A stretch of DNA of 37,979 nt from a virus. Taxonomy: Duplodnaviria; Heunggongvirae; Uroviricota; Caudoviricetes. Positions 16,077 to 18,074 of this stretch are shown in pieces; the stretch's first letter is position 1; each line of letters begins with the position of its first letter. The DNA lies in IMG/VR virus record IMGVR_UViG_2850784384_000004; one strand, written 5' to 3'. The translations under genes were made by a program, and so were the position numbers. The notes below the pieces were generated by a model. That model made no database searches, was not told the DNA's origin, and saw only the letters and a list, made by a program, of their open reading frames with translations.

Positions 16077-16479
16077 GTTCACAGATAAAACACTCTCCAG
16101 GAAACCCGGGGCGGTTCAGCCTGATGCTTCGCACTGGTCTGGGTGCCAGACAAATTGAAGCATACCGCCAGAACTGTTGGGTGGAAGGCTTCCACTTCAA
16201 ACGAGTATCTCCTTTAGGGAAGCCAGACAGTAAGCGAGGGATTATCTGGTACAACTATCCGAAGATAAATCAGTTTATCAAAGACTCATGATATGTCTAA
16301 ATTACCAACAGGTGTCGAGATTCGAGGTAAATACATTCGCATCTGGTTCATGTTTCGAGGAAAACGATGTCGGGAAACATTGAAAGGCTGGGAGATTACT
16401 AACAGTAACATTAAAAAGGCCGGGAATTTAAGAGCGTTGATAGTTCATCAAATCAGTTCCGGTGGGTAATGACTCCAAC

Positions 16480-16983
16480 TTACTGATAGTGTTTTATGTT
16501 CAGATAATGCCCGATGACCTTGTCATGCAGCTCCACCGATTTTGAGAACGACAGTGACTTCCGTACCAGCCTTGCCAGATGTTGTCTCAGATTCAGATTA
16601 TGTCGCTCAATGCGCTGAGTGTAACGCTTGCTGATAACGTGCAGCTTTCCCTTCAGGCGTGATTCATACAGCGGCCAGCCATCCGTCATCCATACCACGA
16701 CCTCAAAGGCCGACAGCAGGCTCAGAAGACGCTCCAGTGTGGCCAGAGTGCGTTCACCGAAGACGTGCGCCACAACCGTCCTCCGTATCCTGTCATACGC
16801 GTAAAACAGCCAGCGCTGACGTGATTTAGCACCGACGTAGCCCCAATGTTCGTCCATTTCAGCGCAGACAATCACATCACTGCCCGGTTGTATGCGCGAG
16901 GTTACCGACTGCGGCCTGAGTTTTTTAAGTGACGTAAAACCGTGTTGAGGCCAACGCCCATAATGCGTGCACTGGCGCGACAT
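16480..16983 (-). CDS. insB: IS1 InsB
   Basis: 167-aa ORF. Confidence 0.9.
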
Positions 16984-17177
16984 CCGACGCCATTCATGGC
17001 CATATCAATGATTTTCTGGTGCGTACCGGGCTGAGAGGCGGTGTAAGTGAACTGTAGTTGCCATGTTTTACGGCAATGAGAGCAGAGATAGCGCTGATGT
17101 CCGGCAGTGCTTTTGCCGTTACGCACCACGCCTTCAGTAGCGGAGCAGGAAGGACATCTGATGGAAATGGAAGCCAC
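16902..17177 (-). CDS. insA: IS1 InsA
   Basis: 91-aa zinc-finger/HTH ORF. Confidence 0.9.
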
Positions 17178-18074
17178 GCAAGCACCTTAAAATCACCATC
17201 ATACACTAAATCAGTAAGTTGGCAGCATTACCTGACCCGTTATCTAAAACAGAATTCAATGCATTAATGGAAAGTGAAAAAGGACAGAGCCAAAACTTGT
17301 GGAAATTTGCCGTTTACTCCGGGCTTCGTCACGGGGAACTGGCAGCTCTGGCGTGGGAGGATGTGGATTTCGAGAAGGGAATTGTGAATGTCAGAAGAAA
17401 CCTGACGATACTTGATATGTTCGGTCCCCCAAAAACAAATGCCGGGATCCGGACGGTAACATTACTGCAGCCGGCTCTTGAAGCACTGAAGGAGCAATAC
17501 AAACTGACCGGGCATCATCGCAAAAGCGAAATCACTTTTTATCATCGGGAGTACGGCAGAACTGAAAAACAAAAACTGCATTTTGTTTTCATGCCCAGGG
17601 TGTGTAACGAAAAACAGAAACCTTATTACTCGGTAAGCAGTTTGGGTACAAGATGGAATGCAGCAGTAAAACGTGCTGGTATTCGCCGCCGTAATCCGTA
17701 CCACACGCGACATACTTTTGCCTGCTGGCTGTTGACGGCAGGAGCGAACCCGGCATTTATAGCCAGCCAGATGGGGCATGAAACTGCGCAAATGGTGTAT
17801 GAAATTTACGGTATGTGGATTGATGACATGAACGACGAACAGATAGCCATGTTGAATGCGCGGTTATCGTAGTTGCAAAGTTTGCCCCCAATTTGCCCCA
17901 TTTAGTACCAGAGAACTGAAATAATGCAAGAAAATCAACAAATTACAAAGAAAGAACAATACGACCTGAACAAGTAAGGGCAAAAATCACAACTATCTGA
18001 CTCATAAGTATTTTATTTATTTTTCAATATGTTAAACATTATCAGCGACAACAATAAGCTACGATAACCCACTC

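Follow-up and report, generated by a model that had tools for sequence, protein, structure and literature searches.

An IS1-associated deletion in a Rac-type integrase gene, and the attP-like junction that separates it from sitABCD in Shigella flexneri

A phage integrase gene interrupted by IS1 lies directly beside the sitABCD operon in the stretch of DNA analyzed here (37,979 nucleotides, hereafter the window). This arrangement raises two questions: whether the broken gene was the integrase of the sit island, and whether its loss is what keeps the operon in place. The explanation that best fits our results, and that we consider quite probable as a whole, is that IS1 inserted into the integrase gene of the upstream member of a pair of tandem prophages and that part of the gene was then lost, most likely by an adjacent deletion.

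Remains of the integrase and the inserted IS1

The gene, its neighbors and the second IS1 of the window are given below in window coordinates.

14813-16118 (+): IS3-family insertion sequence, abutting and truncating xisR
16119-16291 (+): excisionase gene xisR, 3′ fragment lacking the first 43 bp and the start codon
16293-16464 (+): intR 5′ fragment, nt 1-172, 57 codons, most of the arm-type DNA-binding domain
16465-17232 (-): IS1 copy A, 768 bp, insA and insB′ intact, NCBIfam transpos_IS1
17233-17872 (+): intR 3′ fragment, nt 597-1236 (640 bp), codons 200-411, complete catalytic domain (Pfam Phage_integrase, PF00589)
27809-28576 (+): IS1 copy B, a simple insertion with a perfect 9-bp duplication at 27800-27808 and 28577-28585

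The intact reference was intR of EIEC CFSAN029787, which measures 1236 bp and encodes 411 aa; the other annotated intR that we examined, in Jnd12, also has 1236 bp. Nucleotide alignment with the CFSAN029787 reference produced two blocks, window positions 16119-16464 at 99.7% identity and 17233-17973 at 99.5%. The reference sequence missing between them amounts to 424 bp (AATTTGAG...AATAAAGCC) and covers codons 58-199.

The protein encoded by the 5′ fragment is identical to intact IntR at 56 of 57 residues, E53Q being the sole substitution, and its residues 5-57 match positions 1-53 of the 65 in the Pfam profile Arm-DNA-bind_2. Its ORF (16293-16469) starts with ATG, runs through the 57 integrase codons and ends at a TAA stop just within IS1. 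On the other side of the element, a hybrid ORF of 217 aa is opened by a TTG (17219) in the IS1 end and reads into the 3′ fragment as far as 17872. The integrase part of this product agrees with IntR at 211 of 212 residues, the only change being A338T.

In the Pfam domain map of IntR, the arm domain (residues 5-69) is followed by a SAM-like core-binding domain (82-187, a weak match) and the catalytic domain (205-391). Alignment to the Tn1549 integrase (6EMY) places the catalytic residues R231, K266, R358 and H381 and the nucleophile Y391 in the 3′ fragment; at the place normally taken by the first His of HxxR, IntR has Y355, with H356 next to it. What the deletion took away is the end of the arm domain plus all of the core-binding domain; the catalytic domain has also been left without a start codon of its own. 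A contiguous 411-aa polypeptide with arm, core-binding and catalytic parts is no longer encoded at the window int. With its coding sequence interrupted and no core-binding domain left, the window int, judged by its sequence, is certainly a non-functional pseudogene of an IntR (Rac)-type tyrosine recombinase.

Copy A has the size and the ends of an IS1: it is 768 bp long and bears imperfect inverted repeats of ~23 bp at 16465-16487 (+) and 17210-17232 (-), with 3 mismatches between them and 0 matches expected by chance. Its ORFs 16902-17177 and 16480-16983 match NCBIfam transpos_IS1, and the A6C -1 frameshift motif (TTAAAAAAC) is found at element position 305. A 9-bp target duplication is absent, the left flank being GTTCCGGTG and the right flank TGACCCGTT. 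This marks copy A as a rearranged insertion and leaves its identity as IS1 unaffected.

The window supplies an internal positive control for the missing duplication. Copy B, which matches copy A at 768/768 bases and lies in the opposite orientation, is bordered on both sides by TACTAACAG. We also considered an inversion between the two inverted copies as the reason why the duplication is missing at copy A, and excluded it because the duplication of copy B is intact. Copy B is located just 3′ of a DUF1367 (NinB-like) gene in the nin region, a position at which other S. flexneri (loci L028-L030) carry it too.

The anatomy set out in the original prediction was borne out by these measurements. 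It had counted ~57 N-terminal and ~210 C-terminal residues on the two sides of copy A, where we find 57 and 212 codons, and it had noted that the IS1 lacks a 9-bp duplication. It had further read the structure as an IS1-associated deletion of the central region of the integrase in place of a simple insertion, and 424 bp are indeed missing together with the duplication. Nothing would be missing if intact homologues had only ~270 aa, but IntR is far longer than that at 411 aa.

The excisionase gene is damaged as well. What remains of xisR is 99.7% identical to the annotated xisR of CFSAN029787 from nt 44 on, and it matches Pfam DUF1233 (putative excisionase) at profile positions 18-67 only. The IS3-family element next to it, which we take to be IS629-like from its terminal repeat (TGAACCGCC...), has NCBIfam transpos_IS3 matches on ORFs 14867-15193 and 15408-16076, and its orfB is frameshifted (15190-15546 plus 15408-16076). 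This element, too, lacks a target duplication (flanks GAA vs GCC), and 364 bp of the EIEC reference (L016, 47528-47891) have been lost there, among them a DUF1187 gene and the start of xisR (43 bp). It represents a second IS-associated deletion, right beside the IS1 one.

Other genes of the window are interrupted by insertion sequences. The recE gene (10259-11683) is cut by IS600 after codon 474 of 877, and the gam and AAA-ATPase genes (11731-12887) are interrupted by a further IS3-family element (13239-14443), which is absent from G1663 (L006). A rough estimate from ORF coordinates puts IS sequence at about one third of the window. The elements comprise 4 IS600, 2 IS2, 2 IS1, 2 copies of another IS3-family element, 1 IS629-like element and an IS66 remnant.

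Distribution and origin of the deletion

The 217-aa hybrid ORF was found verbatim in 19 contigs. These include the closed sequences CP007037.1, CP034060.1 and CP037923.1, which belong to S. flexneri G1663 (2a), FDAARGOS_535 (1b) and M90T (5a), respectively (PMC9455713). Exact 40-mers across the junctions between IS1 and int (left, CATCAAATCAGTTCCGGTGGGTAATGACTCC; right, GGCAGCATTACCTGACCCGTTATCTAAAAC) were recovered in 7 fetched loci for the left junction and in 13 for the right. Identical junctions are present in G1663, in FDAARGOS_535, in 2016AM-0877 (2a) and in others. Since both recur exactly in independent S. flexneri assemblies, the lesion is real; it is a fixed feature of the sampled S. 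flexneri lineage and no assembly error.

The window's junctions had 0 matches in 5426 complete E. coli genomes. The few E. coli rows that reached a coverage of at least 80% were two-piece joins to IS1 elsewhere in intR. Unrelated E. coli (e.g., NZ_CP116913.1 and NZ_AP027850.1) carry IS1 in or beside intR at other places; the gene appears to have been hit repeatedly.

We propose that, in ancestral S. flexneri, IS1 inserted into an intR-type (Rac-family) tyrosine integrase gene of a lambdoid prophage remnant and that a subsequent IS1-dependent event would have taken out 424 bp of intR. The most likely event is an adjacent deletion, that is, a simple insertion followed by intramolecular transposition of IS1 to a nearby site from its IRR end, and we regard this route as reasonably likely. 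The original insertion would then have been at int nt 596/597, the junction common to all strains examined. Its product would be the structure seen today: a 57-codon arm-domain stub, IS1 and an orphan catalytic domain.

The 5a strain M90T bears on this proposal, as it lacks one more segment.

6365-16464: segment additionally absent in S. flexneri 5a M90T, 10,100 bp, from rha to the int 5′ fragment

The right junction (IS1 IRL / int nt 597) is present in M90T as well, and the IRR end is fused to the equivalent of window position 6364. The fusion point, 9247/9248 in the M90T locus (L008, CP037923.1), corresponds to window 6364/6365. Leftward of it, M90T is collinear with the window except for a 29-bp indel (window 6187-6215) bounded by CACGGGTGAG repeats. 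A further loss from the same IS1 end, with the right junction unchanged, favors adjacent deletion and points to nt 596/597. Nested adjacent deletions anchored on one IS1 end were reportedly described by Reif and Saedler in 1975. The M90T variant suggests nt 596/597 as the original insertion site and falls short of proving it, because ~109 chromosomal IS1 copies make a transient extra copy easy to envisage.

The same structure could have been reached if two IS1 elements had inserted into intR in the same orientation, at 172/173 and 596/597, and homologous recombination between them had then removed one IS1 together with the 424 bp. Both routes yield exactly this structure, and sequence alone cannot separate them. 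The flanks are those that two insertions predict, one duplication contributing its left copy and the other its right copy. IS1 is also very abundant, with 109 chromosomal copies in S. flexneri M90T (PMC7132871), and intR carries it at other positions in several E. coli genomes. However, this route demands two hits within 424 bp plus recombination, and it would need yet another IS1 insertion, at 6364/6365, to produce the M90T variant. A strain with two copies was not seen among the loci checked for junctions. We therefore see two insertions as possible but rather unlikely, and adjacent deletion remains the route that we prefer.

Two more comparisons concern these routes. Simple-insertion intermediates at either breakpoint, for which we constructed the hypothetical ancestor sequences AATAAAGCCTGACCCGTTGGTAATGACTCC and GGCAGCATTACCGTTCCGGTGAATTTGAGT, gave no match in the 5426 complete E. 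coli genomes, a collection without Shigella chromosomes. The IS1 of M90T has one private SNP relative to the copy in the other strains, which is compatible with either origin. IS1 SNPs were uninformative as a test for a recombinant element in M90T, as one of its two differences from the IS1 of the window is shared with G1663, whose left junction is the ordinary one. Whatever the route, the two IS1 junctions and the M90T-specific junction can serve as exact lineage markers.

The attP-like junction and the prophage that int belonged to

Between the integrase remnant and the operon lies a phage attachment sequence.

17873-18140 (+): complete attP-like junction (POP′), between int and sitABCD
18345-21794 (+): sitABCD operon, presumed cargo at the P′ end of the neighboring prophage, 99.5% to EIEC sitA, sitB, sitC and sitD

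The junction was aligned with four references, namely an int-ttcA junction, a uspF-sit junction and two int-POP′ junctions from E. coli. The P arm, from 17873 to ~17930, equals the int-ttcA junction and holds a phage-supplied ATG (17924) with the first 17 codons of a mimic of the ttcA 5′ end. A common core at ~17931-17973, AAGAAAGAACAATAC(A/G)ACCTGAACAA, is shared by all five aligned sequences, and from ~17974 the P′ arm equals the uspF-sit junction. As in a lambdoid attP, the P and P′ arms match prophage junctions and flank a shared core.

There are two repeats of the TTTGCCCC type, putative arm-type Int sites by their sequence, in the P arm and four in the P′ arm. The P′ arm contains four TTTTGCCCC repeats at 18077-18126; overall, 5 copies of this motif were found against 0.53 expected. 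The window has G at core position 17963, where the four E. coli comparators have A, and three tandem TTTTTTGCCCC units in the P′ arm (18075-18107) against two in the comparators.

No partner att core is present in the window, in which the core sequence is unique, and no second core was found upstream of ipaH within 3 mismatches. We regard a 10-bp resemblance to the core, GAACAATACG near 2763, as fortuitous or unrelated.

The layout of related prophages shows where these parts normally lie. In EIEC CFSAN029787, sit is cargo at the uspF end of a ~48-kb prophage and intR stands at the opposite end. The order runs from uspF through sitABCD, tail, head, lysis, Q, nin, replication, immunity, rha, recE, gam, xisR and intR to ttcA, and the backbone beyond intR continues as ttcA-dbpA-zntB-dgcM. 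A uspF-sit junction is also found in S. boydii Sb227 and in E. coli genomes with identical SitA; this is the canonical position of sit in EIEC, S. boydii and almost all E. coli. The int-POP′-sit arrangement was detected in 7 of the 5426 complete E. coli genomes. In E. coli H22, a 231-bp int remnant is followed by POP′-sit, and in E. coli Jnd12 an intact intR is followed by POP′ and then by the tail-fibre end of another prophage.

When the window is mapped on the EIEC prophage, the part to the left of POP′ consists of rha, recE′, gam′, the end of the AAA-ATPase gene, xisR′ and int′, interrupted by IS elements. To the right are sitABCD and tail-fibre genes, then a ~23-kb gap and, on the opposite strand, Q/nin/hok/replication genes. 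The head, tail and lysis genes of the EIEC prophage (~23 kb structural plus lysis) are missing. For a walk beyond the right edge of the window, a look-up of the 175-aa DUF1376-like fragment gave no record; the walk made with the DnaC-like protein showed that S. flexneri continues there with IS600, pgrR′, ycjY, mpaA, ycjG, tpx and tyrR. The IS600 at the window end cuts pgrR (L031, CP034060.1 4519-6154). From the K-12 gene order, we place the pgrR-tyrR backbone on the side of the Rac locus that faces ttcA. The backbone genes that lie between pgrR and ttcA do not adjoin the prophage; presumably S. flexneri retains fnr, in which case they were probably relocated and not lost.

Because POP′ stands between int and sit, we assign int to the neighboring prophage. 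Most likely, as far as the sequence indicates, the broken gene would be the integrase of the upstream (uspF-side) member of a tandem pair at the ttcA/Rac locus with the same att specificity, a tandem origin being suggested by the gene order. The sit prophage would then have adjoined ttcA. This locus lacks the int/ttcA end of the sit prophage; that end may have been deleted or moved by an IS600-mediated rearrangement.

In place of the distal part of the neighbor there would now be an IS66 remnant, a second DUF4376/tail-fibre module, ipaH and a truncated pphA. The second module copy, at 4867-5578 (compared with 22015-22726, after sitD), is 97.6% identical to the EIEC reference. The ipaH effector gene (2942-4657) adjoins this second module. 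Thus ipaH and sitABCD hold the same cargo position in related prophages, and the truncated pphA (1751-2203) shows that this end lies at a different chromosomal locus.

The original prediction had assigned int to the sit island itself and had held that its destruction by IS1 locked the adjacent sitABCD in place. This reading has the proximity of the two in its favor, since int is found immediately beside sit, as well as the 99.5-99.7% identity of int to intR of an intact sit-carrying prophage (EIEC CFSAN029787), and a dead Int is incapable of catalyzing excision. Against it, the full POP′ puts int and sit on different sides of an att site, and the canonical sit prophage has its int at the opposite end, ~48 kb away. 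Moreover, xisR was truncated independently, a second att core is lacking in the window, the other prophage end is an IS600 that cuts pgrR, and the head, tail and lysis genes (~23 kb) have been lost. We consider this reading improbable. An integrase disabled by IS1 is what stands of it; ownership by the sit island does not, nor does the idea that the loss of int fixed sit in place. The comparison with the sit islands of E. coli and other Shigella, which the prediction had proposed, likewise gave a divided answer: the lesion is shared within S. flexneri, but in EIEC, S. boydii and almost all E. coli sit is at the end opposite int. We therefore retain the assignment of int to the upstream neighbor.

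Immobility of the locus, its meaning and related systems

The locus is predicted to be immobile because int is dead, xisR is truncated, the window holds no partner att, the morphogenesis genes are gone and the far end has been replaced by IS600. Immobilization thus appears overdetermined, with the IS1 lesion as one of several redundant immobilizing events. Given this redundancy, the loss of int does not by itself account for the fixation of sit. Even a restored Int could not excise the locus, unless partner sites have survived in other places. Redundant immobilization agrees with the view that homologous and not site-specific recombination drives the rearrangements of sit islands (PMC7545054).

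The lesion is ordinary IS decay of a prophage remnant; damage of this kind is already documented, and the sequence is contained in published genomes. Beyond annotation it has little importance, being one more IS-mediated lesion in the decayed sitABCD prophage region of S. flexneri. POP′ and the origin at the ttcA/Rac locus correct the idea that the adjoining integrase is the island's own. In addition, they explain why sit lies beside uspF in E. coli and S. boydii and beside an int remnant in S. flexneri.

It is conceivable, though we find it very doubtful, that selection for stability was at work. Deletions anchored on IS1, first of 424 bp and then of 10.1 kb in M90T, would in that case have removed, together with the hit in xis, every source of Int and Xis. 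Serotypes 1b, 2a and 5a of S. flexneri share the int-attP-sit adjacency as a fixed trait. If selection did act, the sit operon of the inner tandem lysogen would have been protected from deletion via the still-complete internal attP; the transporter is virulence-associated. In a weaker variant, the conserved 217-aa orphan catalytic-domain ORF could be expressed and still act on DNA.

Finally, two other readings, namely that IS1 simply inserted into an integrase that is short by nature or that the repeat was misassembled, are practically eliminated: the repeat nature of IS1 is the sole point in their favor, while both annotated intR genes have their full 1236 bp, the xisR-intR 5′ segment is present in 1843 of the 5426 complete E. 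coli genomes, and both junctions are identical in at least six independent assemblies, closed genomes included.

Among known systems, the closest to the window genes are IntR and XisR of the E. coli Rac prophage family, which has its att in the ttcA 5′ end. The nucleotide identity to annotated intR and xisR is 99.5-99.7%, and the overlap of xis and int, the P arm with its mimic of the ttcA 5′ end and the Arm-DNA-bind_2 plus Phage_integrase architecture are shared. The window differs in that its int is split by IS1 and lacks codons 58-199, its xisR has no start, and the sequence downstream is POP′ instead of POB′ (ttcA).

In the classical IS1 adjacent deletions of the gal region, IS1 is retained, one end is fixed and the endpoints vary. 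The window resembles them: IS1 is kept, the duplication is absent, one junction is invariant and the other end lies 424 bp off (10.1 kb further in M90T). Unlike in the classical cases, the mechanism here is deduced from the products, which are the same as those that homologous recombination between two IS1 would give.

The region also belongs with the sit island (PAI sit) of Shigella flexneri, in which sitABCD is found amid phage remnants and IS elements and whose location and content vary between Shigella and E. coli (Fisher et al. 2009, as reviewed in PMC7545054). In the window, too, sitABCD is flanked by phage-derived genes and IS. The same review attributes the rearrangements of the island to homologous and not site-specific recombination, and its table gives aspS and yecN as insertion sites (PMC7545054).

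The last comparison is with tandem (poly)lysogens that contain an internal attP, such as lambda dilysogens. The window likewise has int, then POP′, then the cargo end of the next prophage. It differs from intact tandem lysogens in keeping the internal junction only, both outer att junctions having been replaced through IS-mediated rearrangements. The same layout of int, POP′ and next prophage is shown by E. coli Jnd12 and H22.
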